A DNA stretch of 28,252 bases, taken from contig JAFOXT010000409.1 in assembly GCA_017425745.1 (NCBI GenBank), positions 1 to 28,252 on the forward strand. Reading direction: 5' to 3'. The first letter of the stretch is position 1. Each line of letters opens with the position of its first letter. This document shows, piece after piece, positions 5,235 through 26,825 of this stretch. Under the pieces are notes generated by a model. The model made no database searches, had not been told where the DNA came from, and saw only the letters and a list, made by a program, of their open reading frames with translations. This stretch comes from Clostridia bacterium. Lineage in GTDB: Bacteria; Bacillota; Clostridia; Oscillospirales; Acutalibacteraceae. A program made the translations under genes and the position numbers.

Positions 5235-5267
5235 CAAAAAAACAGAGGCAAGGATCAACCTTGCCTC
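5235..5267 (-). terminator. Intrinsic terminator after ilvE
   Basis: Minus strand GAGGCAAGG-ttgat-CCTTGCCTC followed by TGTTTTTT, 7 bp after the ilvE stop. Confidence 0.88.
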
Positions 5268-5274
5268 ATTATAA

Positions 5275-6342
5275 TTATTTAACTTCAATTCTCCAGCCGT
5301 AGGGATCTTCCTTCTTGCCCCACTGGATACCTGTAAGTTCATCGTAAAGCTTCTGTGTGAGTTCACCGATACCGCCGTCACCGATTGTCATAACATCGTC
5401 AACATAACGAAGCTTACCAACGGGTGAAACAACTGCGGCTGTACCTGTACCCCATACTTCTTCAAGAGTACCGTCTTTTGCGGCAGCAACAAGCTCGTCA
5501 ACAGAAATTCTTCTTTCTTCTACTTCGTAGCCCCATGATTTGCAAACATGGATAATTGAGTTACGAGTGATACCGGGAAGAATGCTGCCGTTGAGCATAG
5601 GTGTAACTACCTTGCCGCCGATTTTGAAGAAGATGTTCATAGCACCTACTTCTTCGATGTACTTTCTTTCTACACCATCAAGCCAGAGTACCTGTGAATA
5701 ACCGCTGTCGTGTGCCTTAACCTGAGCAATAAGAGAAGCAGCGTAGTTACCGCCTGTCTTAGCAAAGCCCATACCACCCTTAACAGCACGAACATATTCG
5801 TCTTCAATCCAGATACCAACAGGAGCAAGACCACTTTCGTAGTAAGCACCTGAGGGTGAAAGAATTATAATGAAGAGATATGTCTTTGAGGGAGCAACAC
5901 CGAGGAATTCATCAGTTGCAATAATGAAAGGACGGATGTAGAGTGATGTACCTTCGTCTGCAGGCACCCAATCTCTGTCCACATCAACAATAGCCTTAAC
6001 AGCATCAACAAAATCATCAATAGGAAGTTCGGGGATGCAAAGTCTTTCATTGGTAGCGTTTGTTCTCTTAGCGTTCATATCAGGACGGAAAAGGTAAATC
6101 TTATCGCCTTCGCCTCTGTATGCCTTAAGACCTTCAAACATTTCCTGGCCGTAATGGAAAACCATAGCACTGGGGTCAAGTGAAAGGTTGCCGTAAGGAA
6201 CAATTCTTGCGTCATGCCAACCCTTGCCTTCAGTGTAGTTCATCATAAACATATGGTCAGTAAAAATATGACCGAAACCGAGCTTTTCGCCCTTAGCAGG
6301 CTTTGCTTTCGGAGTAGTTGTTTTGGTAATTTTGATATCCAT
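5275..6342 (-). CDS. ilvE: Branched-chain amino acid aminotransferase (fold type IV PLP enzyme)
   Basis: LGFGHIFTDHM, FHYGQEMFEGLKAY, LYIRPF, KTGGNYA, EVGAMN, ILPGITR, GTGTAAVVSP. RBS GAGGTG supports the ATG at 6342 rather than 6351. Confidence 0.96.
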   Translation of the reverse strand: MDIKITKTTTPKAKPAKGEKLGFGHIFTDHMFMMNYTEGKGWHDARIVPYGNLSLDPSAMVFHYGQEMFEGLKAYRGEGDKIYLFRPDMNAKRTNATNERLCIPELPIDDFVDAVKAIVDVDRDWVPADEGTSLYIRPFIIATDEFLGVAPSKTYLFIIILSPSGAYYESGLAPVGIWIEDEYVRAVKGGMGFAKTGGNYAASLIAQVKAHDSGYSQVLWLDGVERKYIEEVGAMNIFFKIGGKVVTPMLNGSILPGITRNSIIHVCKSWGYEVEERRISVDELVAAAKDGTLEEVWGTGTAAVVSPVGKLRYVDDVMTIGDGGIGELTQKLYDELTGIQWGKKEDPYGWRIEVK

Positions 6343-6360
6343 AATTAACACCTCAATATT

Positions 6361-6894
6361 TTAAAACTCATAACCAAGCTTAACAGCCTTAAGGTTAACA
6401 TCAATGAGATTTGCTTTTCTGGGAGGAACAACCTTTTTAACTGCGTCTTCAACCTTTGCATATCCTACATTGTCGCAAACCTTCATAAGCTTGCCCATAA
6501 GAATCATATTAGCGAGAGTTGAAAAGCCTTCATCGGTTGCAATTTTTGTTGCAGGTACATAGTAAACGTTAACATCATCTCTCTGAACCTTTTCAGAAAT
6601 AAGTGTTGAGTCAACAATAATTGTGCCGCCTGAAACAACTTCACTTTCATACTTTTTAAGTGAAGGAAGGTTCATTGCAACAAGAACATCGGGATTTGAT
6701 ACGATAGGTGAACCAACAGCTGTATCGCTGACGATTACACTGCAGTTGGCAGTACCGCCACGCATTTCCGGGCCGTATGAGGGAAGCCAGCTGATCTGCT
6801 TATCTTCGAGAAGCCCCTTATAAGCGATGAGCTTGCCTGCAAAAAGTACGCCCTGACCGCCGAAGCCTGCAATAAGAATCTGAGTTGTGCTCAT
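6361..6894 (-). CDS. 2-oxoacid:ferredoxin oxidoreductase gamma subunit (Vor-type)
   Basis: AGFGGQGV and SYGPEMRGGTA motifs, NMILMG. ATG overlaps the stop of the beta subunit. Confidence 0.92.
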   Translation of the reverse strand: MSTTQILIAGFGGQGVLFAGKLIAYKGLLEDKQISWLPSYGPEMRGGTANCSVIVSDTAVGSPIVSNPDVLVAMNLPSLKKYESEVVSGGTIIVDSTLISEKVQRDDVNVYYVPATKIATDEGFSTLANMILMGKLMKVCDNVGYAKVEDAVKKVVPPRKANLIDVNLKAVKLGYEF

Positions 6895-7649
6895 TATTCT
6901 GCCTCCTTTTCTGCATCTCTGTCCTTATAAACACCAAGAGGATAATAAGGAAGCATATTGTCTTCAAGCCACTTAAGAGCATCTACAGGGCTGAGACCCC
7001 AGTTAGTAGGACAAGTTGAAACAACTTCGATAAGTGAGAAGCCCTTCTTATCAATCTGATTCTGGAATGCCTTCTTAATAGCTTTCTTTGCGTTTTTAAC
7101 GTTCTTTACATTATTTACAGCAACTCTTTCGATGTAGCCTGCACCGTCGAGCTGTGAAAGAAGCTCTGAAACCTTAACAGGGAAACCACAGTGGTTTGTA
7201 TCTCTGCCGTAAGGTGAAGTCTGTGTCACCTGACCGGGAAGTGAAGTAGGAGCCATCTGTCCGCCTGTCATACCGTAAATTGCGTTGTTAACAAAAATTA
7301 TTGTAATATTTTCATTTCTTGCTGCTGAGTGAACAGTTTCAGCCATACCGATTGAAGCAAGGTCGCCGTCGCCCTGATATGTGAAAACAATGTGGTTGTC
7401 AGGATCAGCACGCTTAAGACCTGTTGCAACAGCAGGAGCTCTGCCGTGAGCAGCCTCAACCATATCACAGTTGAAATAGTTGTAAGCAAGAACTGAACAA
7501 CCAACAGGAGCAACACCGATTGTCTTGCCTTCAATACCAAGCTCATCGATTGCCTCGGCAACAAGACGGTGAATAATACCATGAGTACAACCGGGGCAAT
7601 AATGTAAAGGCACATCTGCAAGTGACTTGGGTTTATCAAATACTACCAT
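6894..7649 (-). CDS. 2-oxoacid:ferredoxin oxidoreductase beta (TPP-binding) subunit (Vor-type)
   Basis: HYCPGCTHG, VGCS, HGRA, TPP motif QGDGD...NN, YGMTGGQMAPT, STCPT. Confidence 0.93.
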   Translation of the reverse strand: MVVFDKPKSLADVPLHYCPGCTHGIIHRLVAEAIDELGIEGKTIGVAPVGCSVLAYNYFNCDMVEAAHGRAPAVATGLKRADPDNHIVFTYQGDGDLASIGMAETVHSAARNENITIIFVNNAIYGMTGGQMAPTSLPGQVTQTSPYGRDTNHCGFPVKVSELLSQLDGAGYIERVAVNNVKNVKNAKKAIKKAFQNQIDKKGFSLIEVVSTCPTNWGLSPVDALKWLEDNMLPYYPLGVYKDRDAEKEAE

Positions 7650-7650
7650 T

Positions 7651-8712
7651 TTATTTTCCCTCCTTGTCTACAGAAATAATGCTTTCAAGAACCTGCTCGG
7701 GAGAAGGAATCATACCGCCTACTCTGTTGCAGAGATGTACGTTTTTCTTGCAATCTGTTGCGAGTCTGATGTCTTCAATCATCTGACCCATTGAAAGCTC
7801 AACAGAAATGAATGCCTTAACCTTGTCAGCTGCCTTCTGGAAAGGAGCCTTGGGGAAGGGCCAGAGTGTGATAGGTCTGATAAGACCAACCTTGATACCC
7901 TCTTCTCTTGCTTTAACAATTGCATTTTTAGCAACTCTTGCCGCAATACCGAAAGCAACAACACAGATGTCAGCATCGTCCATCATGTACTCTTCGTACA
8001 TAGCTTCATTTTCTTCGATAGTCTTGTATCTGTCGTATCTTTCAAAATTGAGTTTTTCAAGCTCATCGGGTACAAGTGAAAGAGAGTTAATAATGTTCTT
8101 CTTTCTTTCGAGCTTTGTGCCTGTAACAGCCCATGACTTATCATAATCGTTAACCTTAACCTCTGAAAGCTCAACAGGCTCCATCATCTGACCGATTGTA
8201 CCGTCAGCAAGAATCATTGAAGTCATTCTGTACTTTTCTGCAAGGTCAAAGCCCTTGATTGTAAGGTCAGCCATTTCCTGAACTGATGAAGGTGCAAGAA
8301 CGATCATTTTGAAGTCACCGTGTCCGCCGCCCTTAGTAGCCTGGAAATAGTCAGACTGTGAGGGCTGAATGCCACCGAGACCGGGGCCGCCACGCTGTAC
8401 GTTTACAACAAGTGCAGGAAGATCTGAACCTGCCATATAAGAAAGTCCTTCAGCCTTAAGAGAAATTCCGGGGCTTGAAGATGATGTCATAACTCTTTTA
8501 CCGGTTGATGCAACACCGTAAACCATATTAATTGCAGCAACCTCACTTTCAGCCTGAAGGAAGCAGCCACCGATTTTAGGCATTTTCTTTGCCATGTAAG
8601 CAGCAATTTCAGTCTGAGGGGTAATAGGATAACCGAAGTAATGTCTGCAGCCTGCAAGAATAGCAGCTTCAGCAATGGCTTCGTTACCCTTCATAAGTAC
8701 TTTTTCAGCCAT
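7651..8712 (-). CDS. vorB: 3-methyl-2-oxobutanoate (branched-chain 2-oxoacid):ferredoxin oxidoreductase alpha subunit, VorB-like
   Basis: MKGNEAIAEAA, FGYPITPQTE, QAESEVAA, SSSPGISLK, QRGGPGLG, QPSQSDY. RBS GAGGT...GGAA supports the ATG at 8712. Vor versus Kor specificity is inferred from the short alpha subunit and context. Confidence 0.88.
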   Translation of the reverse strand: MAEKVLMKGNEAIAEAAILAGCRHYFGYPITPQTEIAAYMAKKMPKIGGCFLQAESEVAAINMVYGVASTGKRVMTSSSSPGISLKAEGLSYMAGSDLPALVVNVQRGGPGLGGIQPSQSDYFQATKGGGHGDFKMIVLAPSSVQEMADLTIKGFDLAEKYRMTSMILADGTIGQMMEPVELSEVKVNDYDKSWAVTGTKLERKKNIINSLSLVPDELEKLNFERYDRYKTIEENEAMYEEYMMDDADICVVAFGIAARVAKNAIVKAREEGIKVGLIRPITLWPFPKAPFQKAADKVKAFISVELSMGQMIEDIRLATDCKKNVHLCNRVGGMIPSPEQVLESIISVDKEGK

Positions 8713-8722
8713 TTCCTTTACC

Positions 8723-8929
8723 TCACTTTTCAACTTTAATTATGCAATCGGGACACATAGTTGCGCAGAAAGCACAAGCAATACACTGACTTTCGTCTGT
8801 GATTTTTACAGGTGTGTGACCTTTTGCATTGATTACATCTGTATCAAGCACAAGAAGCTTTTTGGGACAAGCAGCAACGCAAAGTCCGCAGCCCTTGCAC
8901 ATATCGGTTTTAAACGTCAATTTAGCCAT
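8723..8929 (-). CDS. 2x[4Fe-4S] ferredoxin, delta subunit of the oxidoreductase
   Basis: Two CxxCxxCxxxCP motifs (CKGCGLCVAACP, CIACAFCATMCP); RBS GGAGGTG. Confidence 0.93.
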   Translation of the reverse strand: MAKLTFKTDMCKGCGLCVAACPKKLLVLDTDVINAKGHTPVKITDESQCIACAFCATMCPDCIIKVEK

Positions 8930-8947
8930 ATCGGCACCTCCGTTTTA

Positions 8948-9622
8948 TTAAAACTGTTTTTTCTGAAGCGTCAACGGAAAATACTCATTTCCCGATTTTT
9001 TAACAACATCATATATATTACTCTCAACCGAAGAAAAAAGCAAGGGTAAAGATGTTATTTTACAAAGTTTTTTCACTTCATTTTCTGTGGAAAATATATC
9101 CTCTTTTGTCGTTAAAGCTCCAAGATTGGAGTTGTTGACAATTGCTGTAAATTTAAGAGAGCTTACCGCTTCAATTTCTCTCATAATCTCAACAGCATCT
9201 TCAGCTGTTCTTGTAATAGGTCTGAAAAAATTAACAACGAAAATCATTTCATAATTATCTTCGCTTTTAATTGCATTTGCAAGCCTGCCGAGAACAACAG
9301 AGCCTGCATCGTCGCCGCCGATATCAAGAACTGCATAGCTGTTTTTATCATTAATAATTCTGTTAATTGTAAAAGGCAACGCAGGAATATCAAGATTGGT
9401 TGCAGCAAACTCAGAACATATGAGGTCAATCCCCTCTTCCTTCAACTCGTTTTCACTATCCTTGGAGCGGAAATATGGATTAACTATATCCAAGTCTGCA
9501 AGGGCAACCGATTTGCCGCTTTTTTTAAGCTCTTTTGCAAAATTAACTGCAATATTGGTCTTACCACTGCCGTAGTGACCTGCAAAAATCACTACTCGCT
9601 TACTGTTATCAATATATCTCAT
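8948..9622 (-). CDS. Uncharacterised P-loop ATPase of MinD/ParA/CobQ (SIMIBI)-like type
   Basis: Walker A GHYGSGKT, ADLDIVNPYFR, VLDIGGD, VNNSN. Its ATG lies 2 nt after the upstream stop (TAAttATG). Confidence 0.8.
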   Translation of the reverse strand: MRYIDNSKRVVIFAGHYGSGKTNIAVNFAKELKKSGKSVALADLDIVNPYFRSKDSENELKEEGIDLICSEFAATNLDIPALPFTINRIINDKNSYAVLDIGGDDAGSVVLGRLANAIKSEDNYEMIFVVNFFRPITRTAEDAVEIMREIEAVSSLKFTAIVNNSNLGALTTKEDIFSTENEVKKLCKITSLPLLFSSVESNIYDVVKKSGNEYFPLTLQKKQF

Positions 9623-9624
9623 AA

Positions 9625-11886
9625 TTACAGCTTGTTTCTCTGAATCTTGCCGCTGATTGTTTTGGGAAGCTCATCACGGAAGACTACTATTCTGGGATAT
9701 TTATAAGGAGCGGTATTCTTCTTAACATAGTTCTGAATTTCTTTCTTAAGCTCTTCTGTCGGTTCAGTACCCTTTGTGAGAACAATACTTGCTTTTACAA
9801 CCTGACCTCTCATATCATCAGGAGCAGCAGAAACACCGCATTCAAGAACATAAGGAAGCTCCATGATTACGTTTTCAATTTCAAAGGGTCCTATACGGTA
9901 GCCTGATGACTTAATAACATCATCGATACGGCTTACATACCAATAGTAACCGTCTTCATCGCACCAAGCAGTATCACCTGTATGATACATACCGTCATAC
10001 CATACTTCGTTTGTCTTTTCATCATCATTGTAGTAGCCCTTGAAAAGACCGCAAGGAATCTTCTTATCAGTTCTTACAACAATTTCACCTGTTTCACCAA
10101 CAGCACATTCTTTTCCGTCGGGATCAACAATTGCAATATCATAGCAGGGAACGGGCTTACCCATAGCGCCCGGCTTAGGTATTGTTCCTGCAAGGTTAGC
10201 GATTGTAAGGGTTGTTTCGGTTTGGCCGAAGCCTTCCATAATTACAATGCCTGTAGCCTTTTCAAATTGATAGAACACTTCAGGATTAAGAGCTTCACCT
10301 GCAGTTGTTGCATATCTGATTGAAGAAAGATCATATTTTGAAAGATCCTCCTTGATAAGCATTCTGTACATTGTGGGAGGAGCACAGAATGTTGTGATAT
10401 GATACTTAGCAAACATAGGAAGAATTTCAGAAGCATTAAATCTGTCAAAGTCAAATGTAAATACTGCACCTTCACACATCCACTGACCGTAGAACTTGCC
10501 CCACATTGCCTTACCCCAACCTGTGTCGGAAATTGTAAGGTGAAGGTCGCTGGGCTGAATTGTGTGCCAGTATCTTGCTGTTATAAAGTGACCGAGAGCA
10601 TACTTAAATGAGTGTGCAGCAATCTTCGGATATCCTGTTGTGCCTGAAGTGAAGAACATAAGCATTGTATCATCACCGCAGGCTGTATCCTCAGTACGGG
10701 CATAAATACTTCTGAAAAGCTTATATTCAGTATCGAAATTATGCCAGCCCTCTCTGTCAGCACCGACAATAATCTTATATTCAAGCGCACCGTAGGTTGC
10801 GGCAGCCCTATCAATGTGGTCAGCAACAGCGCCGTCTGCAGTACAGACAATAGCCTTGACACCCGCAGCCTTAAAGCGATATTCAAAATCGTGCTCTACG
10901 AGCTGATTTGTTGCAGGAATAATTACTGCACCGATTTTGTGAAGAGCAAGAGCAGTAATCCAGAACTGATAGTGACGCTTAAGCACAAGCATTACTCTGT
11001 CGCCCTTTTTGATGCCGAGAGAAAGGAAGTAGTTGGCTGCACGGGCAGATTCCTTTTTCATATCCTTATAGGTGAATCTTCTTTCCGTCTTGTCATTTGA
11101 AATATGAAGCATTGCAAGCTTATCGGGATATTTATCGGCAACAGCATCAACGATATCAAAAGCAAAGTTAAAACTGTCCTCATTTTTGTAATCGAGCTTT
11201 TTAAGAACACCGTTTTCATCCTCTTCGGCTACTATGAACTTTTTCACCTCAAGGTTATGCTCAGCCTTTGCTGTTACAAAGGTTTTTTCAATATCCTTTG
11301 TGTCTGCCTTTTCGTCGTCAGAGATAACAACTGCAAGGAAGGTGCAGTCCTCACCGTCAACGGCAATCATACCGTGAGGTGACGAGCTCTTGTAATAGAT
11401 GCTGTCACCTTCTTCAAGAATTTCCGTGTGGTTACCAACACGCACCTTGAGCTTACCTGAAAGAACGATATCGAACTCCTGACCGCCGTGGGTAATTGTA
11501 TGAATGGGCTTATTCTGAAGCTCTTCTCTGTATTCATATTTTGCAAGATAGGGCTCAGCAAGCTTCTTTCTGAACAAAGGTGCAAGGTTATTGATTTCAA
11601 TTCCGTCTTCCTTTGACGTAATTTTACCCTGACCCTTTCTTGTAACGGTATAAGATGAAAGGTTGCTGCTTTTACCTTCAAGAAGGTCAGTCTTACCAAT
11701 ACCGAAAGCCTTTGCACATTTGTGGATAAACGAAAAAGGAAAATCTACTGTGCCTAATTCATATTCACAGTACTGCTCAACAGTAATGTCTGTTTTTGCA
11801 GCCATTTCCTCAACGCTGAATCCACACACCTCACGCATTTCTTTAATTCGTGATGCAACCTCCATAAGTTGATTGTTCATTTCCAT
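9625..11886 (-). CDS. Fusion: XRE-type HTH + cupin regulator domain + medium/branched-chain acyl-CoA synthetase (Methanosarcina AAE/MACS-like)
   Basis: Residues ~1-70 are HTH (RIKEMREVCGFSVEEMA...YELG) and ~110-190 are cupin (THGGQEF...GDSIYYKSSSPH). Then NFAFDIVD, FTSGTTGYPK, SDTGWGKAMWGKFYGQW, EGFGQTET, YHTGD and PKTISGK, closely recalling the M. acetivorans acyl-adenylating enzyme. Confidence 0.9.
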   Translation of the reverse strand: MEMNNQLMEVASRIKEMREVCGFSVEEMAAKTDITVEQYCEYELGTVDFPFSFIHKCAKAFGIGKTDLLEGKSSNLSSYTVTRKGQGKITSKEDGIEINNLAPLFRKKLAEPYLAKYEYREELQNKPIHTITHGGQEFDIVLSGKLKVRVGNHTEILEEGDSIYYKSSSPHGMIAVDGEDCTFLAVVISDDEKADTKDIEKTFVTAKAEHNLEVKKFIVAEEDENGVLKKLDYKNEDSFNFAFDIVDAVADKYPDKLAMLHISNDKTERRFTYKDMKKESARAANYFLSLGIKKGDRVMLVLKRHYQFWITALALHKIGAVIIPATNQLVEHDFEYRFKAAGVKAIVCTADGAVADHIDRAAATYGALEYKIIVGADREGWHNFDTEYKLFRSIYARTEDTACGDDTMLMFFTSGTTGYPKIAAHSFKYALGHFITARYWHTIQPSDLHLTISDTGWGKAMWGKFYGQWMCEGAVFTFDFDRFNASEILPMFAKYHITTFCAPPTMYRMLIKEDLSKYDLSSIRYATTAGEALNPEVFYQFEKATGIVIMEGFGQTETTLTIANLAGTIPKPGAMGKPVPCYDIAIVDPDGKECAVGETGEIVVRTDKKIPCGLFKGYYNDDEKTNEVWYDGMYHTGDTAWCDEDGYYWYVSRIDDVIKSSGYRIGPFEIENVIMELPYVLECGVSAAPDDMRGQVVKASIVLTKGTEPTEELKKEIQNYVKKNTAPYKYPRIVVFRDELPKTISGKIQRNKL

Positions 11887-11913
11887 TATGATCGCCTCCG
11901 AACAATTAATTTT

Positions 11914-11954
11914 AAAAAAAAATAAACCCGTCTCAAGATAATCCTGAGACGAGT
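11914..11954 (-). terminator. Terminator of the Ile T-box leader
   Basis: ACTCGTCTCAGGA-tta-TCTTGAGACGGGT followed by TTATTTTTTTTT. Confidence 0.92.
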
Positions 11955-12200
11955 AAAATAACTATACCCGCGGTACCACTCAAATTGCGAATTAACCGCC
12001 ACCTTCAAGCTCTGACAAGCTCTATGCACTAACGTAGCATTCACGAAAGACATCTACTTGCTTAAAGCTTTCGGGTCTTCAGCTCAGAAGTGATAGGATA
12101 ATGAAAACTTGCAATACCGACTTTACACCACCGTCGGCTCTCTGAAAAAGCTTATTTTCGTCCGTCTTCGTCACAGCTTTTGTTGAAATATTGAAATGTT
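11914..12200 (-). promoter_or_regulatory. T-box riboswitch leader, Ile specifier (AUC), transcriptional type
   Basis: Stem I with TGTGA K-turn strand, AGAGA and GGTG motifs. Specifier loop tcct-ATC-A-cttc (ATC at 12092-12094). Stem II AGTA/GAA, F-box-like ACGTTA, T-box AATTTGAGTGGTACCGCGG (11969-11987). Antiterminator GAG-UGGUACC-GCGGGUA..UACUCGU-CUC competes with the terminator. Confidence 0.92.
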
Positions 12201-12206
12201 GAATGT

Positions 12207-12235
12207 ATTTTATCACCTTAAAGCGCGAATGTCAA
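12207..12235 (-). promoter_or_regulatory. Sigma-A promoter of the Ile T-box operon
   Basis: TTGACA (12230-12235), 17 bp, TAAAAT (12207-12212) with extended TG. Confidence 0.85.
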
Positions 12236-12266
12236 TACATTTTTAAAAAATTTTTTTCTGATAAAA

Positions 12267-13073
12267 TCAGGGCAGTCTGATATCAAATAGCTCAGCAGCA
12301 TTTTCGTAATAAATTTTTCTGTATTCTTCATCACCAAGCTTCAGAGCTTCAAGATATTCATATTCGTCTTTATAGGACCACATTGGAAAATCTGTTCCGA
12401 ATATTACCTTATCGGCACCGTATTTTTCTATTATTTCCTTTGCTTTTTCCTTTTTAAGCCAATGAAAGCTTGACGAAGTATCAACATAGAAATTCTTGCA
12501 GCCGCTGAGCACATCAGAGGCTTCTTCCCACACTGACCAACCTCCGAAATGTGCGCCGATAACAGTGAGCTCAGGGAATCTTTCAAGAACATCTGCCATT
12601 CTATCCGGATTTGAGAAATCATATCTGTAATCACCTGTATGAAGAAGCACCGGTAGCTCTGCTTCACTGCACGCCTTATAAATAGAAAACAGTCTTTCAT
12701 CATTAATTCTGAATTTCTGAAAATCCGGATGAAGCTTAACACCCTTAAGACCGAGAGCTTTAATATTTTCTATTTCTGAAGCTACATTTTCAGTGTCGGG
12801 ATGGAGAGCTCCGAGCCCTGTGAATCTCCCCTCGCCCTCCTTGACACAGTTTGAAATAAAGCTGTTTATAGAGCCTACCTGATGCGGTGTTGTCGCAACC
12901 GAAAATATAATGTTGTGACAAACGCCTATTTGATTTCCTTTTTCAATAAGTGTTGAAGCCTTACCGTCATAGCACATCGGCAAATCATAGAAGCTGCCTA
13001 TACCTTCAACTGCCTTTTCCGCAATCTTATCAGGATAAATATGACAGTGAGAGTCAATAATAGGATATTGCAT
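12267..13073 (-). CDS. Amidohydrolase_2 family metallo-hydrolase of unknown substrate
   Basis: IDSHCH, GVKLHP, VLLHTG, GAHFGG, YVDTS, IFGTDFP. RBS GGGAG supports the ATG at 13073 (MQYP) rather than 13088. Confidence 0.88.
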   Translation of the reverse strand: MQYPIIDSHCHIYPDKIAEKAVEGIGSFYDLPMCYDGKASTLIEKGNQIGVCHNIIFSVATTPHQVGSINSFISNCVKEGEGRFTGLGALHPDTENVASEIENIKALGLKGVKLHPDFQKFRINDERLFSIYKACSEAELPVLLHTGDYRYDFSNPDRMADVLERFPELTVIGAHFGGWSVWEEASDVLSGCKNFYVDTSSSFHWLKKEKAKEIIEKYGADKVIFGTDFPMWSYKDEYEYLEALKLGDEEYRKIYYENAAELFDIRLP

Positions 13074-13087
13074 CTTAGTTACTCCCA

Positions 13088-15607
13088 TTATGCTGTTTCA
13101 ACTGAGTCGGCCTTCTGAAGTCCGTATCTCTTTACTGCATCTTCTCTCATCTGATACTTAAGAATCTTGCCTGCAGCATTCATCGGGAATGAATCAACAA
13201 AATCAACGTATCTGGGCACCTTATGCTTAGCCATATGGTCTCTTACGAATTGCTTCATTTCATCAACTGTCATGCTTTCGCCTTCCTTGAGAATGATGCA
13301 TGCAGCAATTTCTTCACCGTACTGCTCGTCAGGCACACCAATAACCTGAACGTCGCTTACCTTGGGATGAGTGTAGATAAACTCTTCAATTTCCTTGGGA
13401 TAAATGTTTTCACCACCGCGGATAATCATATCCTTAAGTCGACCTGTGATTTTGTAGTTACCGTCTTCTGTCTTGCAAGCAAGGTCACCGGTATGAAGCC
13501 AACCGTCTTTATCAATTGCAGAAGCAGTTGCCTTGGGCATCTTATAATAACCCTTCATTATGTTGTAGCCGCGTGCTACGAATTCACCGATTTCACCAAC
13601 AGGTAAATCTTCACCGGTTTCAGGGTCAACAATTTTACATTCAATTTCAGGAAGTGCTCTGCCGACTGTTGATACACGAACTTCAATGGGGTCGTCAGTT
13701 GAACTCATTGTGCATCCGGGAGAAGCCTCTGTCTGTCCGTAAACGATTGTGATTTCGCTCATATGCATCTTTTCAACAACGTCTTTCATTGTTGCGATAG
13801 GACAAGGTGAACCCGCCATAATACCTGTTCTCATATGTGAGAAGTCGGTCTTTTCAAAATCGGGATGCTCAAGCATTGCAATAAACATTGTAGGAACGCC
13901 ATGGAAAGCAGTAATTTTTTCTTGATTTACACATGCAAGTGACGGCTTCGGAGTAAAGTAAGGCAACGGATAAAGTGTTGCGCCATGAGTCATTGAAGCG
14001 GTCATTGCAAGAACCATACCGAAGCAATGGAACATAGGAACCTGAATCATCATTCTGTCTGCAGTTGAAAGATCCATTCTGTCACCGATACACTTACCGT
14101 TATTTACAACGTTATAATGTGTAAGCATAACGCCCTTGGGGAAGCCTGTTGTACCTGATGTATACTGCATATTACATACATCGTTGGGGTCAACTGTAGC
14201 TGCAATTCTGTAAACCTCTTCAAGAGGTACATTTTCACTTCTTTCAATTGCTTCTTCCCAAGTAAGACAGCCCTTCTTTTTAAAGCCTACAGTAATTACA
14301 TTTCTGAGGAAAGGAAGTCTGTGGCAATGAAGCGGCTGACCGGGCTTTGTAGTTTCAAGCTCAGGACAAAGCTCACCAACAATGTCAGCATAATGTGAAT
14401 CACGGTAGCCTTCAACAAGAATAAGTGTATGTGTGTCTGACTGCTTGAGAAGGTATTCAAGCTCGTGAATTTTATAAGCTGTGTTAACTGTTACAAGAAC
14501 TGCACCGATTTTTGTTGCAGCCCAGAATGCAATATACCACTGAGGAATGTTTGTAGCCCATACTGCAACGTGACTTCCGGGCTTAACGCCGAGAGCAAGG
14601 AAAGCTCTGCAGCATTCATCTACATCGTCACGGAATTCAGCATATGTTCTTGTATAATCAAGGGTTGTGTATTTGAAAGCATACTGGTCAGGGAATTCCT
14701 CAACCATTTTATCAAGCACCTGAGAGAAGGTTTTATCGATAAGTGCTTCTTTCTTCCATACAAATCTGCCGTCGCCTTTTTTATTTCTGTAAAGGTGATT
14801 TTTCTTTCTCGACGGAGCCTGGAATTTCTGCATATACTGTGAAAAATGTGAGAATATTACATCAATTTCAGTAAAATCTTCCATCCATAAAGGATTCCAT
14901 TCAAGTGAAATGTAACCGCTGTAATTTACTGATGAAAGAGCATTGATAACACTTTCAACAGGAAGCTCGCCTTCACCGATAAGACAGTACTGTCTTTCGC
15001 CGTCTACAATATGAGAATCCTTGATATGAACATGCTTGACAAAAGCACCGAGGTTTGTAATTGTAACGTCAGTTTCTTCGCCCTGCTCACAGAAGGTGTG
15101 ATAAACGTCCCACAAAGCTGCAACGGAATCACAAGCAAAGTTCATAAGAACATCGCGAAGCTTTGTTGTATCTGAGAACATACCGCAGGTTTCAATAAGA
15201 ACGGTAACATTCTTTGTTTCAGCATAGCTTACAAATTTGTCAAGACAGCTGATAACATTCTCAGTTGCATTTTCATTTTTACCTGATGCGTATACTCTTA
15301 CATAAGGTACATTAATACCTGCAGCAAAATCAATACATTCCTTGATATGTTCAGCGTTTTCATCAATTTTGTCTGATGAAATATCAACACTTATGTCAAA
15401 GCAAGGTACAGAAATGCCGTTATCTCTGAGCTCACGCATTGTAGCAACAGAGTTATACTGATGGAAAGGTCCGTTCTTTTCAACAAGGTCAGAACCGATT
15501 ACATTATGAAGTTCAATACCTGTAAAGAAATTTTCCTTGGCGAGCTCAACAAAATCGTTCCAGGAATAATCCTTCCATCCGTTTATTGAAAAAGAAAGCT
15601 TCATCAT
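13088..15607 (-). CDS. Fusion: xylose-isomerase-like/AP-endonuclease-2 TIM barrel + acyl-CoA synthetase (AMP-forming)
   Basis: N-terminal ~265 aa with metal-site motifs VLIET, WDVYH, HVHIKD and ISLEW. C-terminal ~550 aa with QYTSGTTGFPKGVMLTH, YGQTE, LHTGD, RLKDMIIRGGENIYP and PMNAAGK. RBS GAGGAGG. Confidence 0.88.
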   Translation of the reverse strand: MMKLSFSINGWKDYSWNDFVELAKENFFTGIELHNVIGSDLVEKNGPFHQYNSVATMRELRDNGISVPCFDISVDISSDKIDENAEHIKECIDFAAGINVPYVRVYASGKNENATENVISCLDKFVSYAETKNVTVLIETCGMFSDTTKLRDVLMNFACDSVAALWDVYHTFCEQGEETDVTITNLGAFVKHVHIKDSHIVDGERQYCLIGEGELPVESVINALSSVNYSGYISLEWNPLWMEDFTEIDVIFSHFSQYMQKFQAPSRKKNHLYRNKKGDGRFVWKKEALIDKTFSQVLDKMVEEFPDQYAFKYTTLDYTRTYAEFRDDVDECCRAFLALGVKPGSHVAVWATNIPQWYIAFWAATKIGAVLVTVNTAYKIHELEYLLKQSDTHTLILVEGYRDSHYADIVGELCPELETTKPGQPLHCHRLPFLRNVITVGFKKKGCLTWEEAIERSENVPLEEVYRIAATVDPNDVCNMQYTSGTTGFPKGVMLTHYNVVNNGKCIGDRMDLSTADRMMIQVPMFHCFGMVLAMTASMTHGATLYPLPYFTPKPSLACVNQEKITAFHGVPTMFIAMLEHPDFEKTDFSHMRTGIMAGSPCPIATMKDVVEKMHMSEITIVYGQTEASPGCTMSSTDDPIEVRVSTVGRALPEIECKIVDPETGEDLPVGEIGEFVARGYNIMKGYYKMPKATASAIDKDGWLHTGDLACKTEDGNYKITGRLKDMIIRGGENIYPKEIEEFIYTHPKVSDVQVIGVPDEQYGEEIAACIILKEGESMTVDEMKQFVRDHMAKHKVPRYVDFVDSFPMNAAGKILKYQMREDAVKRYGLQKADSVETA

Positions 15608-15610
15608 AAT

Positions 15611-17023
15611 TTATGCCTCCTCGTATACAATCTTGTTTACAGCGTTAAGATAAGCTCTGATGCTGGCGCCGATAATGTCGGTTGAAATACCCTTGCCTGA
15701 GTAGAGCTTTCCGTCGCTGCGAAGCTTAACAAGAGCTGAGCCCATAGCTTCACGGCCTTCAGTTACTGACTGAATCTGGAAATCATCAAGCTCATAATGT
15801 CTGCCGATAATCTGCTCAATTGCAAGGAAAGCAGCATCGATGGGGCCGTCACCGTTTGAAAGACCGCTGATTTTTTCGTCGTTCTTTCTGAGGGTAATAT
15901 TTGCAGTTGCTGAAATAACATTACCGCTGTTAATTACATATGATTCAATGAAATAAGTTGTGGGCACCTGCATTGCAGCTGAAGCAATAATCGCATCAAG
16001 CTCCTTAGCACCAACAGTTTTGTTACGGCTTACACGCTTGAAAGCCTCAAACACCTTTGAAATATCTTCCTGTGAAAGATCATAGCCGAGACCCTTTACA
16101 GCCTTAGAAACTGCAGTTATATCATCGTGATCATTAAGCACGAGATCGCTTGCAACACTACCTACACCAAAATCAAAAGCTGAATTCTTACTCTTCTTTG
16201 AATTTGCAATCCAATCAATCTGCTTTGAAATTCTGCCGAATTCTGTCATTCTGATTGATGTGTCAACACTGAGCTCATCACTGTGAATTCTGACTGCCTT
16301 ACAAACAGGTTCAAGGTTAGCAGATTCACTGCCGTTAATTGATGAAACCTTAATTTCTCTTACACCTGATTTAATTGCAGAAATACAGCATGCGCATGAC
16401 ATATTAACCTCGTCACTGCACTGAATACCTACTGTTACATCAGCAACTGCAGGTACTGCACTGTAAATATCATCAATAAAGGTTGAAATTTCGTCTGCAA
16501 GCATAGTGCCGGCTGTATCGCTGAGAGTTACAACTGAAGCGCCTGCAGCAACAGCAGTATCAATTGCTTTATAAAGGAAGTCTGCTTCACTTCTTGTAGC
16601 ATCGTCAGCAACAAACTCAACTTCAAAGCCAAGTGCTTTAGCCTTTGAAACAAGCTCCTTAATCATTTCAAGAACCATAGGAGGCTTTTTCTTGCAGATA
16701 TATTCCATCTGTACTGTTGAGGTAGGTACAACAATCTGAATTCTTGCTTTAACAGCCTCTTTAAGTGCATCAGCAACTCTTTCAACATCCTGCTCAGCAA
16801 GATTTACGGGCACAGCAATAACGCTGTGCTTTACGCATGAAGCAATTGACTTTATAAGAAGAACATCTGTTGTCTCCTTTACAATTGCAGGAAGCTCGAT
16901 TACAGAAACATTCACTTTGTCGAGAAGCTTAGCAATTTCAATCTTCTCTCTGAATGAAAGTGAATAATCCGCACCCTTAGCTGCTTGTTTTAAAGTAATG
17001 TCAGCAATTGATAATTTTTCCAT
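15611..17023 (-). CDS. 2-isopropylmalate synthase (LeuA) homolog with degenerate catalytic site and intact C-terminal regulatory domain
   Basis: LeuA-like barrel (EFVADDATRS, SDTAG) and regulatory domain (GDGPIDAAF, TEGREAMG, STDIIGAS). DTTLRDGEQ reads DITLKQAAK and HCHND reads QCSDE. RBS AAGGAG supports the ATG at 17023 (470 aa). Confidence 0.85.
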   Translation of the reverse strand: MEKLSIADITLKQAAKGADYSLSFREKIEIAKLLDKVNVSVIELPAIVKETTDVLLIKSIASCVKHSVIAVPVNLAEQDVERVADALKEAVKARIQIVVPTSTVQMEYICKKKPPMVLEMIKELVSKAKALGFEVEFVADDATRSEADFLYKAIDTAVAAGASVVTLSDTAGTMLADEISTFIDDIYSAVPAVADVTVGIQCSDEVNMSCACCISAIKSGVREIKVSSINGSESANLEPVCKAVRIHSDELSVDTSIRMTEFGRISKQIDWIANSKKSKNSAFDFGVGSVASDLVLNDHDDITAVSKAVKGLGYDLSQEDISKVFEAFKRVSRNKTVGAKELDAIIASAAMQVPTTYFIESYVINSGNVISATANITLRKNDEKISGLSNGDGPIDAAFLAIEQIIGRHYELDDFQIQSVTEGREAMGSALVKLRSDGKLYSGKGISTDIIGASIRAYLNAVNKIVYEEA

Positions 17024-17073
17024 TTTAAAAACTCCTTTTACATTTTTTAGATGATCTGAAGAGTATAACAAAG

Positions 17074-17110
17074 AAAAAAATCCTTGAAATTACAAAAGTA
17101 ACTTCAAGGA
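17074..17110 (-). terminator. Terminator of the Leu T-box leader
   Basis: TCCTTGAAGTTAC-tttt-GTAATTTCAAGGA followed by TTTTTTT. Confidence 0.92.
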
Positions 17111-17368
17111 CGAATATAATCCGTGGTACCACCTTGTTTATCGCACTGTTGCGATCACTCTTCAAGACTCTGACAAGCCTTTAGCCATGATAACGGGGCA
17201 TCCGTGATTGCCTACACAACAAAAAGCCTTCAGCAATCCTGCTCAGGAACGAGACTGAAATTCAATACCCTATCGGTTTTCACCAACCACCGACTCTCTG
17301 AAAGCAGCAAAAAGAACCTCATAATTCCGTCAAAGCATTTGTTAAACCATATAAATGGCTTTAAATTT
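17074..17368 (-). promoter_or_regulatory. T-box riboswitch leader, Leu specifier (CUC), transcriptional type
   Basis: Stem I with TTTGA, AGAGA and TGGTG motifs. Specifier tcagt-CTC-G-ttcc (CTC at 17251-17253), F-box CCGTTA, T-box AACAAGGTGGTACCACGG (17121-17138). Antiterminator AAGG-UGGUACC-ACGGA..UUCGU-CCUU. Confidence 0.92.
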
Positions 17369-17374
17369 TGAAGT

Positions 17375-17403
17375 ATTTTAACACATTAAACCGTAAATGT
17401 CAA
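17375..17403 (-). promoter_or_regulatory. Sigma-A promoter of the Leu T-box operon
   Basis: TTGACA (17398-17403), 17 bp, TAAAAT (17375-17380) with extended TG. Confidence 0.85.
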
Positions 17404-17427
17404 TACATTTATAAATATTTTTTATAA

Positions 17428-24977: not shown

Positions 24978-26825
24978 TTAATATAAACGTGCCTTTTCAA
25001 TATTTTCTTTCATTTCTTCGTAGCACTTCTGAACTGTTTCGCTTTCTGAAACCTCAGCAACGCCAACTCTCCACCATGAATCATAGCCGTCTGTCATTGA
25101 CTTGTGAGCTACCTTGATATCAAAAAGAGTTGAAACAGTCTGTTTCTTTGAATCTTCAAGTGCTGCGTAAAGCTCTTCTGCGTTAGTTACGCGATAAGCC
25201 TTACAGCCGTAGCCTTCAGCAATTTTAGCATAATCAGTATAAATGATTTCACCGTCAAGAAGACCGCTCTGTTCGTTTCTTCTTGTAAATCTTGTACCGA
25301 ATGTATCAGTACCCTGATTATTCTGAAGGTTTTCAATGCAACCCCAACCGCTATTGTCAAAGAGCATTACATTGATTTTCTTGTCTTCCTGAATAGCTGT
25401 ATAGAGCTCACTGTGAAGCATAAGGAAGCTGCCGTCACCTACCATTGAATAAACCTCTTTGTCGGGACAAGCAAGCTTTGCACCAAGTGCACCGCAGATT
25501 TCATAGCCCATGCATGAGAAACCGTATTCAACGTGGTATGTATTCGGAGCTTTTGACTTCCAGATTCTCTGAAGACAACCGGGAAGTGAGCCTGATGAAC
25601 CGATAATAACTGAATCATCAGCAACAACCTCATTGATGATACCGAGTGCTCTCATCTGTGAGAAGCCTTCAGCAGGCTCATCGTTGTAGCAACGGTCGAT
25701 TTCTGCGAAGAAATCAGCCTGTGCCTTTGCATATTCGCTATTCCATTCTGATTTATAAGCTCCGAGCTTTGCGCCGATTGCATCGATACCCATTTTAGCA
25801 TCGGCAATAACAGCTGTGCTGTCCATCTTGAATGCGTCAAATGAGCAAACATTGATTGAAAGCATTTTTACGTCGGGATTCTGGAAGCCCCATTTTGAGC
25901 AGGTTGTAAAGTCAGTAAGTCTTGTACCAACTGCAATAATAAGGTCTGCTCTCTTTGCGATATAGTTAGCTGAAGCGGTACCTGTTACACCGCAACCACC
26001 CATATTGAGATGATGAGCAAAGGGAATCTGACCCTTACCTGCCTGTGTTTCGCCGATAGGAATATCGTACTTTTCAGCAAATTTAAGCACTGCTTCGTAG
26101 GAATCTGAATATGTAACGCCGCCACCAACAACAATCATCGGCTTCTTAGCGTTTTTAATAAGCTCAGCCGCTGCTTCGATTTCTCTTTCTGAGGGTACCT
26201 TTCTGTCCATGTACCAAACTCTCTTCTGAAGGAAGTAATCGGGATAATCAAAAGCTTCAGCTTCAACATCCTGAGGCATTGCAATACAAACTGCACCCGT
26301 ATCAGCTGCGTCTGTAAGAACTCTCATAGCATTAATCATAGCAGTCATAAGCTGTTCGGGACGCTGAATTCTGTCCCAATATTTGCACACTGCCTTGAAT
26401 GCGTCGTTAGCAGTAATTGCACAGCTGTCATACTGTTCAATCTGCTGAAGAACGGGGTCGGGCTGACGGCAGGCAAAGGTATCACCGGGAAGCACAAGAA
26501 GAGGAATTCTGTTTGCAGTTGCAGTACCGCAGGCAGTTACCATATTAAGTGCACCGGGGCCGATTGATGAAGTGCAAGCAATAATCTTGCGACGCTTATT
26601 CTGCTTTGCATAAGCAATTGCAGAATGTGCCATACCCTGCTCATTATGACCCTGATAATATCTGAGGCTGTGTCCGCCCTGTTCAAGTGCCTGACCGATA
26701 CCAACTACACAACCGTGACCGAAAATTCCGAAAATACCGTCAACGAATTTTGTTTCTTTTCCATCAAAGCTGATGTACTGATTATCAAGGAACTTAACAA
26801 GAGCTTGCGCCATAGTAAGTTTCAT
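24978..26825 (-). CDS. iolD: 3D-(3,5/4)-trihydroxycyclohexane-1,2-dione acylhydrolase (decyclizing)
   Basis: LTMAQALVKFLDNQY, GIFGHG, HNEQGMAH, SIGPGA, QPDPVLQQ, EYGFSCMGYE, TPP motif GDGSFLMLHSEL. Confidence 0.96.
   Translation of the reverse strand: MKLTMAQALVKFLDNQYISFDGKETKFVDGIFGIFGHGCVVGIGQALEQGGHSLRYYQGHNEQGMAHSAIAYAKQNKRRKIIACTSSIGPGALNMVTACGTATANRIPLLVLPGDTFACRQPDPVLQQIEQYDSCAITANDAFKAVCKYWDRIQRPEQLMTAMINAMRVLTDAADTGAVCIAMPQDVEAEAFDYPDYFLQKRVWYMDRKVPSEREIEAAAELIKNAKKPMIVVGGGVTYSDSYEAVLKFAEKYDIPIGETQAGKGQIPFAHHLNMGGCGVTGTASANYIAKRADLIIAVGTRLTDFTTCSKWGFQNPDVKMLSINVCSFDAFKMDSTAVIADAKMGIDAIGAKLGAYKSEWNSEYAKAQADFFAEIDRCYNDEPAEGFSQMRALGIINEVVADDSVIIGSSGSLPGCLQRIWKSKAPNTYHVEYGFSCMGYEICGALGAKLACPDKEVYSMVGDGSFLMLHSELYTAIQEDKKINVMLFDNSGWGCIENLQNNQGTDTFGTRFTRRNEQSGLLDGEIIYTDYAKIAEGYGCKAYRVTNAEELYAALEDSKKQTVSTLFDIKVAHKSMTDGYDSWWRVGVAEVSESETVQKCYEEMKENIEKARLY

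Follow-up and report, generated by a model that had tools for sequence, protein, structure and literature searches.

A T-box-controlled gene cluster for probable salvage of branched short-chain fatty acids into leucine and isoleucine in a Clostridia bacterium

The subject of this study is a gene cluster in a 28,252-nucleotide stretch of DNA (hereafter the window) from a Clostridia bacterium, contig JAFOXT010000409.1 of assembly GCA_017425745.1. The contig (C438) belongs to a fragmented metagenome-assembled genome (MAG) of 493 contigs, 91% complete with 5% contamination, and its closest relatives are labelled Acutalibacteraceae or Oscillospiraceae and come from animal gut and rumen. We conclude, with good though not full assurance, that the cluster serves the starvation-induced salvage of branched short-chain fatty acids, as found in gut or rumen, into branched-chain amino acids. 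It runs from 17403 to 5245 on the minus strand throughout and consists of two transcription units, each with a promoter and a T-box, the leucine (Leu) unit preceding the isoleucine (Ile) unit in the direction of transcription. Rfam and domain searches bore out what a preliminary description had read from the letters of the window, namely two T-boxes (AUC and CUC), two acyl-CoA synthetases, a Vor-type oxidoreductase (VOR) with its ferredoxin, and ilvE, all on one strand. Its statement that each T-box is followed by a synthetase holds for the Ile T-box and needs a small correction for the Leu T-box, where a LeuA-like gene comes between.

The route we propose would operate as follows. Uncharged tRNA-Leu(GAG) would cause readthrough at the CUC T-box and expression of a synthetase fused to a TIM (triosephosphate isomerase) barrel, the TIM-synthetase, which would convert isovalerate, ATP and CoA to isovaleryl-CoA. 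Uncharged tRNA-Ile would cause readthrough at the AUC T-box and expression of a Macs-type synthetase, yielding 2-methylbutyryl-CoA, together with VOR and IlvE. With reduced ferredoxin, VOR would reductively carboxylate the acyl-CoAs to 4-methyl-2-oxopentanoate or 3-methyl-2-oxopentanoate, one carbon longer, and IlvE would transaminate these 2-oxoacids to Leu or Ile. A catalytically dead LeuA would act as a leucine-binding regulatory partner, providing feedback at the activation step with a logic like that of HisZ. This order of steps, from acid to acyl-CoA, 2-oxoacid and amino acid, had been suggested in the preliminary description, and the evidence that now supports it is comparative: gene linkage, the match between T-boxes and synthetases, similarity to the structure 3ETC, and the gene inventory of the genome.

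Linkage, specifier codons and gene inventory

To survey neighbourhood conservation, the proteins of the window were mapped on the best 80 loci of at least 598 relatives of the TIM-synthetase fusion in one-per-species genomes. In these loci, the dead LeuA directly precedes the TIM-synthetase wherever upstream DNA is present, and an amidohydrolase lies beside the pair in 40 of the 80. The block made of a P-loop nucleoside triphosphatase (NTPase) gene, fdx, vorBAC and, in part of the loci, ilvE, with a synthetase carrying an N-terminal helix-turn-helix (HTH) and cupin extension (the HTH-cupin synthetase), adjoins the Leu block in about 45 of the 80, either upstream or downstream of it. All-against-all clustering of every open reading frame (ORF) returned no other conserved gene families near the best 80 loci. 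The same genes are thus linked, in shuffled order, in dozens of genomes, the cluster being frequent among uncultured Clostridia of gut and rumen, and since the linkage persists through rearrangement it is good evidence for a functional unit.

Specifier codons in the related loci were read by a pattern scan, with Rfam alignments of selected loci as a check. In about 43 loci the LeuA-like/fusion pair has a CUC leader ahead of it, and CUC T-boxes always go with the TIM-barrel synthetase lineage, lying in front of either the whole operon or the fusion gene itself. The HTH-cupin synthetases follow AUC or GUA leaders. In the tree of these synthetases, proteins behind AUC (Ile) and GUA (Val) leaders are split by a single branch with support 100 and no exceptions among 21 labelled sequences; the protein of the window falls in the Ile-T-box clade. 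Several loci, for example L089 and L100, contain all three specifiers. The idea of one activating enzyme per amino-acid signal, raised from the window alone, is therefore borne out on both sides, the synthetase clades coinciding with AUC and GUA and the TIM-synthetase lineage with CUC. Judged from these codons and trees, it is a general rule of the family, and the window holds the two-module (Leu and Ile) version of a three-module system.

Two leaders in other loci stand apart. In genome G160, the T-box ahead of the dead LeuA (L100:10425-10669, minus strand) reads CCC at the specifier register, which may point to a variant, to an error or to a loop that is offset. A T-box reading UUC (Phe) is found in genome G154 at a distance of 3.5 kb from the Leu block (L097:13908-14154, minus strand), upstream of a 467-amino-acid ORF (12480..13883).

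The gene inventory separates leucine from the other two amino acids. Contig C322 carries ilvB, ilvC and ilvD together, C47 carries ilvA, and each of the four exceeds its cut-off. A search of the 91%-complete MAG found no LeuB, no LeuCD and no active LeuA, which is not the same as their absence: the only aconitase-family gene found is a PRK11413-type hydratase, the only gene of the isocitrate/isopropylmalate dehydrogenase family (Iso_dh) is an NADP isocitrate dehydrogenase, and the only HMGL-like genes are the LeuA-like gene of the window and a probable carboxylase subunit. No second branched-chain aminotransferase was detected by tblastn over the MAG, the IlvE of the window being the only one found. 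The preliminary description had taken a lack of ilvBCD, leuBCD and a canonical leuA as a sign of dependence on the cluster; this stands for Leu and does not for Ile and Val, the genes ilvA, ilvB, ilvC and ilvD being present. Subject to the completeness of the MAG, the organism can probably make Val and Ile de novo and has no isopropylmalate pathway. As that pathway was not found, the Leu unit is likely the sole leucine route and the Ile unit a supplementary one. Elsewhere in the window (24978-26825, minus strand) is a 615-amino-acid thiamine pyrophosphate (TPP) enzyme whose 232 bits on the model of the acetolactate synthase large subunit are far under the cut-off; it is not the IlvB of the genome, which is on C322.

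The same association appears across genomes. LeuB is missing from 28 of 32 genomes that carry the full Leu block. Among 150 genomes sampled evenly across the order, each 90% complete or more and, being related, not independent of one another, LeuB over cut-off is present in 14 of the 55 fusion-bearing genomes versus 68 of the 95 without the fusion.

Table 1 Features of the gene cluster in the window, in the direction of transcription
Feature	Position	Strand	Evidence and remarks
Promoter P1, Leu unit	17375..17403	-	TTGACA, 17 nucleotides, TG-n-TAAAAT; 11/12 matches, extended -10
T-box leader 1, specifier CUC (Leu)	17103..17342	-	RF00230 119.4 bits, gathering 93, E 3.4e-26
T-box 1 terminator	17111..17080	-	One of the two best terminators of the region
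Dead LeuA (pseudo-LeuA)	15611..17023	-	HMGL-like 116 bits and LeuA_dimer 103 bits; likely start ATG at 17023
TIM-synthetase fusion, 839 amino acids	13088..15607	-	PF01261, PF00501 and PF13193; xylose-isomerase-like TIM barrel at residues 1-285
Amidohydro_2 protein, Leu-module accessory	12267..13088	-	PF04909 144 bits
Promoter P2, Ile unit	12207..12235	-	11/12 matches, extended -10
T-box leader 2, specifier AUC (Ile)	11942..12183	-	RF00230 78.8 bits, E 2.7e-17
T-box 2 terminator	11954..11926	-	One of the two best terminators of the region
HTH-cupin synthetase, 753 amino acids	9625..11886	-	HTH_19 (XRE-type), Cupin_2 and AMP-binding
CbiA/ParA-like P-loop NTPase	8948..9622	-	Domain search
Ferredoxin-like delta subunit VorD, 68 amino acids	8723..8929	-	Two CxxCxxCxxxCP motifs, 2x[4Fe-4S]
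Alpha subunit VorB (NCBI naming)	7651..8712	-	NF005507 552.9 bits, cut-off 399; likely start ATG at 8712
TPP-binding beta subunit	6894..7649	-	TPP_enzyme_C; PorB_KorB family, below cut-offs
Gamma subunit	6361..6894	-	POR domain 125.6 bits
IlvE	5275..6351	-	NF009897 501.7 bits, cut-off 307; TIGR01123 412 bits, cut-off 250
Intrinsic terminator ending the operon, 3' of ilvE	5245..5267	-	Third terminator in the terminator scan

The leucine unit and its dead LeuA

We propose that the TIM-synthetase fusion is an isovalerate-CoA ligase. The best solved matches of its synthetase domain are feruloyl- and malonyl-CoA synthetases, at about 260 bits; since it has no close characterised relative, we infer its substrate from context only. 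More than 6000 protein clusters from metagenomes, thousands of them of gut and rumen origin, match the TIM region of the fusion and are labelled merely "AMP-binding protein" or similar, and Atlas searches with the TIM domain and with the NTPase of the Ile unit gave generic family names only. The relatives number at least 6343, and in the best 120 of these the architecture is the plain one of three domains throughout, with no LeuA-like::TIM::synthetase triple fusion among them. Stand-alone TIM-barrel proteins of other genomes (30-34% identity) were set aside as unrelated paralogs, as they do not lie beside LeuA-like or synthetase genes.

Could the Leu unit carry out other or additional chemistry, its TIM barrel and amidohydrolase acting, ahead of CoA activation or following it, on some precursor that is not free isovalerate, and its dead LeuA barrel still binding a LeuA-like ligand? 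The two proteins belong to isomerase/dehydratase and decarboxylase/hydrolase superfamilies, the three Leu-specific extras are conserved, and the lack of a close characterised relative of the synthetase domain leaves room for such a role. The TIM domain of the window (AP_endonuc_2/PF01261 match of 86.6 bits) keeps all four metal ligands, Glu-Asp-His-Glu. The amidohydrolase, classed by its sequence as a metal-dependent hydrolase or decarboxylase family protein, also keeps its metal site, the HxH, His, His and Asp columns of which are conserved in 41 sequences; its nearest solved structure is the uncharacterised BB4693 (3irs). However, two of the TIM ligands are replaced in a quarter to a third of the family. 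Across 74 relatives, Glu139 and His194 are each found in 71, whereas position 167 is Asp in 50 and Asn in 19, and position 236 is Glu in 51, Val in 16 and Ile in 4; catalysis as a family-wide property of the domain is doubtful. Moreover, half of the loci have no amidohydrolase, the whole unit in many genomes is a TIM-synthetase behind a Leu T-box, and the redox enzyme that such chemistry would need is not among the conserved neighbours. We consider this explanation unlikely. In one Bacillota cluster among the predicted-structure neighbours of the amidohydrolase, this fold is joined to a YbaK-type aminoacyl-tRNA editing domain (PF04073).

The LeuA-like protein was compared by alignment with solved LeuA barrels and with 20 canonical LeuA of the same order. 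It reaches at best 310 bits on the LeuA equivalog models, the cut-off being 532. Where LeuA has the RDGEQ and HxH motifs, the protein reads KQAAK and QCS and has lost the substrate Arg, the metal Asp and both histidines, in agreement with the earlier label of a pseudo-LeuA. These catalytic positions are variable across 71 relatives of the protein and kept in the 20 canonical LeuA. The match to the regulatory domain LeuA_dimer (PF08502) covers 4-130 of 131 positions, and mean pairwise identity within the dead family is 0.41 in the barrel and 0.71 in LeuA_dimer, the reverse of canonical LeuA (0.59 and 0.46, respectively). The dead proteins form a clade of their own on one side of a branch from canonical LeuA, a pattern that can be explained by one origin, with no need of repeated decay; an early-branching copy, in genome G123, has a half-degenerate active site.

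With catalysis lost and strong selection on the domain that in related LeuA proteins binds leucine, the dead LeuA is best read as a leucine sensor. That it is a leucine-sensing regulatory partner of the Leu branch we suggest tentatively, as somewhat short of an even chance. The more specific version is put forward with a little more hesitation: the dead LeuA would be a leucine-sensing allosteric subunit of the isovalerate-CoA ligase, an active LeuA would be the partner where the ligase occurs alone, and HTH-cupin sensors would sit on the Ile and Val ligases, so that each branch would have two control layers, tRNA charging and a ligand-binding domain. Structure prediction of a complex between the dead LeuA (residues 17-486) and the TIM domain (1-285) gave a score of 0.02 relative to a mark of 0.34, which counts neither for nor against binding. 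A PDB sequence search with the LeuA regulatory domain alone gave no match.

The closest known protein is the short bacterial form of 2-isopropylmalate synthase LeuA (TIGR00973; barrels 3ewb and 3rmj). It has the same two-domain architecture, and its LeuA_dimer is well preserved in the dead LeuA; the latter differs in catalytic residues that are replaced family-wide, in a score of about half the equivalog cut-off, and in forming its own clade. HisZ, a dead HisRS paralog, is an allosteric subunit that regulates HisG, and BirA is an adenylating enzyme with a DNA-binding domain. Both resemble the proteins described here by analogy and not by homology: as in HisZ-HisG, a pseudoenzyme would lend end-product sensing to the first enzyme of the salvage route and, as in BirA, an adenylate-forming enzyme is fused to an HTH in the HTH-cupin synthetase.

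Pairing of the dead LeuA with the ligase could be judged in 54 of the 55 fusion-bearing genomes of the order sample. The dead LeuA precedes the fusion in 32 of the 54, and of these one has a canonical LeuB and none a TIGR00973-grade LeuA. In the other 22 the fusion occurs alone, and 20 of them have a canonical LeuA and/or LeuB. Lone fusions keep the CUC T-box directly upstream, which points to the ligase itself as the leucine-regulated enzyme. Both states are found in at least three taxonomic families, and within each family they track the canonical Leu genes. This pattern fits a ligase with a LeuA-type partner, dead or alive, and equally two cassette types sorted by genome background.

Several genomes with a lone TIM-synthetase contain leuA-type genes of their own. 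In G109, two catalytically intact LeuA/CimA-type genes (L141:9794-12195, minus strand) are located directly upstream of the lone TIM-synthetase, which has its own CUC T-box; this may be the ancestral neighbourhood of the fusion. Eight further genomes (G035, G061, G083, G072, G086, G104, G114 and G165; for example L133:8513-11573) have a LeuA over the TIGR00973 cut-off, several with an adjoining CimA-like paralog. All eight have a lone TIM-synthetase and none a LeuB over cut-off, and in G035 the leuA pair is without leuBCD neighbours.

The isoleucine unit, related loci and transcription signals

The HTH-cupin synthetase is proposed to be a 2-methylbutyrate-CoA ligase of the Macs/MbcS type. Its synthetase part matches PDB entry 3ETC far better than any other solved structure (619 bits, E 5.5e-185, about 57% identity), aligning with it end to end (residues 5-519 against 53-571). 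The entry is MacsMa of Methanosarcina acetivorans, which prefers 2-methylbutyrate and completes its two-step reaction cleanly with that substrate only (PMC10455477). MbcS of Staphylococcus aureus activates 2-methylbutyrate and isobutyrate and handles isovalerate very poorly (PMC10026030). A separate synthetase lineage for Leu therefore makes sense: the alpha-branched acids of Ile and Val would be served by two paralogs of one family, and the beta-branched isovalerate by the other lineage, found behind the Leu T-box. Unlike MacsMa and MbcS, the enzyme of the window has an N-terminal XRE-type HTH and cupin extension, for which a PDB sequence search found no solved relative, and is under T-box control.

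MbcS is also the basis of an alternative in which the synthetases supply primers, as branched acyl-CoAs, to the synthesis of branched-chain fatty acids when amino acids, from which such primers usually come, are short, VOR and IlvE being merely co-located. It is the nearest named family of the Ile-module synthetase, its documented role in S. aureus is the priming of membrane fatty acids (PMC10026030), and acyl-CoA products could serve both ends. T-boxes, however, sense tRNA charging and thus the need of protein synthesis; VOR and IlvE are in the same transcription unit and stay linked despite the shuffling of gene order; the cluster is enriched in genomes without LeuB; and the Leu unit retains a leucine-binding LeuA domain. 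Lipid priming as the purpose of the cluster is thus improbable. In the salvage route, and in distinction from MbcS, the proposed product would feed amino-acid synthesis instead of lipid synthesis.

The VOR of the Ile unit is complete, with alpha, beta, gamma and delta subunits present. The NTPase gene adjoins fdx-vorBAC in 31 of 34 related loci with vorB. The protein has no conserved cysteines and is therefore unlikely to be an Fe-S carrier, and a PDB sequence search returned matches at the level of the P-loop only; that it has an assembly or helper role is a guess. On contig C96 of the same MAG is a second cluster of synthetase, ferredoxin and three-subunit oxidoreductase (L156:1268-5645, plus strand), with no T-box and no ParA-like gene beside it, whose alpha subunit is 50% identical to that of the window.

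A catabolic cluster, in which IlvE and VOR would break down branched-chain amino acids to acyl-CoAs next to unrelated synthetases, could appeal to the oxidative direction in which VOR-type enzymes are best known and to the C96 cluster without a T-box, yet it is very improbable, as catabolism would need the reverse of induction by lack of the amino acid concerned, AMP-forming synthetases spend ATP on acyl-CoA and conserve no energy, and the specifier codon matches the synthetase clade throughout.

A further T-box operon of this genome bears on the direction of such enzymes. On contig C399 (L155:602-8312, minus strand), a T-box of 141 bits reads UAC (Tyr) at the specifier register, the base after the codon being C and not the usual purine. 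It is followed by genes for an acyl-CoA synthetase, a Na+/solute symporter related to monocarboxylate transporters, the alpha (over cut-off) and beta subunits of an indolepyruvate:ferredoxin oxidoreductase, and a PaaK-like phenylacetate-CoA ligase. This is a probable operon for the salvage of aryl-acetates into aromatic amino acids, a conversion for which there is precedent in rumen physiology (PMC7356843), and it lends weight to an anabolic role of the T-box-controlled oxidoreductases of this organism.

Specifier codons of the two leaders were read at RF00230 model positions 91-93. Both leaders have the UGGU bulge within the conserved T-box sequence, and in both a strong terminator overlaps with the antiterminator. 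A tRNA-Leu(GAG) is encoded in the genome; a tRNA-Ile was not recovered among the 32 tRNAs of the incomplete MAG. P1 and P2 are the two top-scoring (tied) sigma-70-like sites in the region, and a comparable promoter precedes each T-box in related loci. They are identical around the -35 box (17390-17403 and 12222-12235, minus strand), where a short palindrome (AATGT, 4 bases, ACATT) is found. This palindrome was considered as an operator for the HTH domain and dropped, as none of 65 homologous promoter regions elsewhere carries it; the shared stretch is probably a local promoter duplication. Between the Leu and Ile units there is no terminator ahead of leader 2, so that transcripts from P1 continue into it.

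Contigs from two bovine-gut metatranscriptome libraries match the leaders and most genes at 95-100% identity, and one of them runs from the final part of the amidohydrolase gene through leader 2 into the beginning of the synthetase gene. As contigs from RNA libraries may contain DNA, they were taken as presence and not as regulation. Their depth is higher for vor-ilvE than for the Leu unit and near zero for cwlD, but contig depth cannot rank genes and was likewise used for presence only.

Weight of the proposal and relation to known systems

A number of observations weigh against the salvage route, or against parts of it. Firstly, we infer the substrates and the role of the dead LeuA and, from T-box control and neighbouring genes, the action of VOR on branched 2-oxoacids or acyl-CoAs and its reductive direction in vivo. 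Several models also score below their thresholds: the TIM-synthetase reaches 722 bits on PRK12583 (cut-off 832), its nearest NCBIfam model, the Ile-module synthetase 441 bits on MbcS NF047394 (cut-off 850), likewise the nearest model, and the beta and gamma subunits of VOR stay under the NCBIfam equivalog cut-offs. Leader 2, at 78.8 bits, is below the Rfam gathering score of 93, yet its match spans the full model (1-219), and homologous Ile/Val leaders elsewhere (e.g. locus L100) score similarly, at about 84 bits. Secondly, the wiring is a puzzle. VOR and the sole IlvE are located behind the Ile T-box, and starvation for Leu alone gives no obvious induction; their expression under Leu limitation alone must come from basal read-through or an internal promoter, for which the candidate at 9393..9366 is a weak consensus match only. 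Thirdly, the three conserved extras of the Leu module, the dead LeuA, the TIM domain and the amidohydrolase, are superfluous to a simple three-step scheme. Finally, the comparative patterns have their own limits. The leucine genes of the MAG are not found rather than absent, and since LeuB is retained in a quarter of the genomes with the fusion, the route is not essential everywhere. In the ligase tree, the proteins that occur alone form one clade (support 100); this is one contrast only and carries no statistical power, and for this reason an independent-pairs test that set the presence of the dead LeuA against that of the canonical Leu genes was without power.

The chemistry of the route is classical, as is T-box control of amino-acid genes, and enzymes of the Macs/MbcS type have been characterised. 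Labelling has shown since the 1960s that branched acids are converted to Leu, Ile and Val, and methanogens possess an anabolic VOR. In rumen anaerobes, labelling by Allison, Robinson and others established that isovalerate, 2-methylbutyrate and isobutyrate are reductively carboxylated to Leu, Ile and Val (PMC7356843). The chemistry proposed for the cluster is the same: a branched acid, its acyl-CoA, ferredoxin-dependent carboxylation and transamination. The rumen work is physiological, however; a gene assignment, T-box control and accessory proteins were not found for it in the literature searched, and a Prevotella paper of 2020 calls the reverse route "not proven" and hypothetical at the gene level (PMC7709123). 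In the T-box-controlled ilv-leu and aminoacyl-tRNA synthetase operons of Bacillota (RF00230), the leader architecture, specifier logic and terminator/antiterminator switch are those seen here and, in the ilv-leu operons as in this cluster, the sensed amino acid is the product of the pathway. The cluster differs in controlling enzymes of salvage (synthetases and VOR) rather than the canonical pathway, and in having several specifiers spread over the modules of one cluster. No published description of the cluster, of the correspondence between T-boxes and synthetases, of the dead LeuA or of the two fusions was met in the literature searched, in which subscription journals were little covered; an older comparative T-box survey may mention vor genes.

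Many fibre-degrading anaerobes of rumen and gut need branched-chain volatile fatty acids ("isoacids"), which are used as feed additives. The cluster offers a complete candidate gene set, with its control logic, for this long-known route, and its T-box specifiers are built-in labels that predict the acid used by each synthetase. If the proposal is true, uncultured Clostridia that are scored as Leu auxotrophs may not be auxotrophs, cross-feeding between proteolytic and fibrolytic microbes would find an explanation, and the dead LeuA would stand as a clear example of a pseudoenzyme that is conserved and probably has a sensing function. The Tyr-T-box operon, which includes an indolepyruvate oxidoreductase, suggests that the strategy reaches the aromatic amino acids as well.

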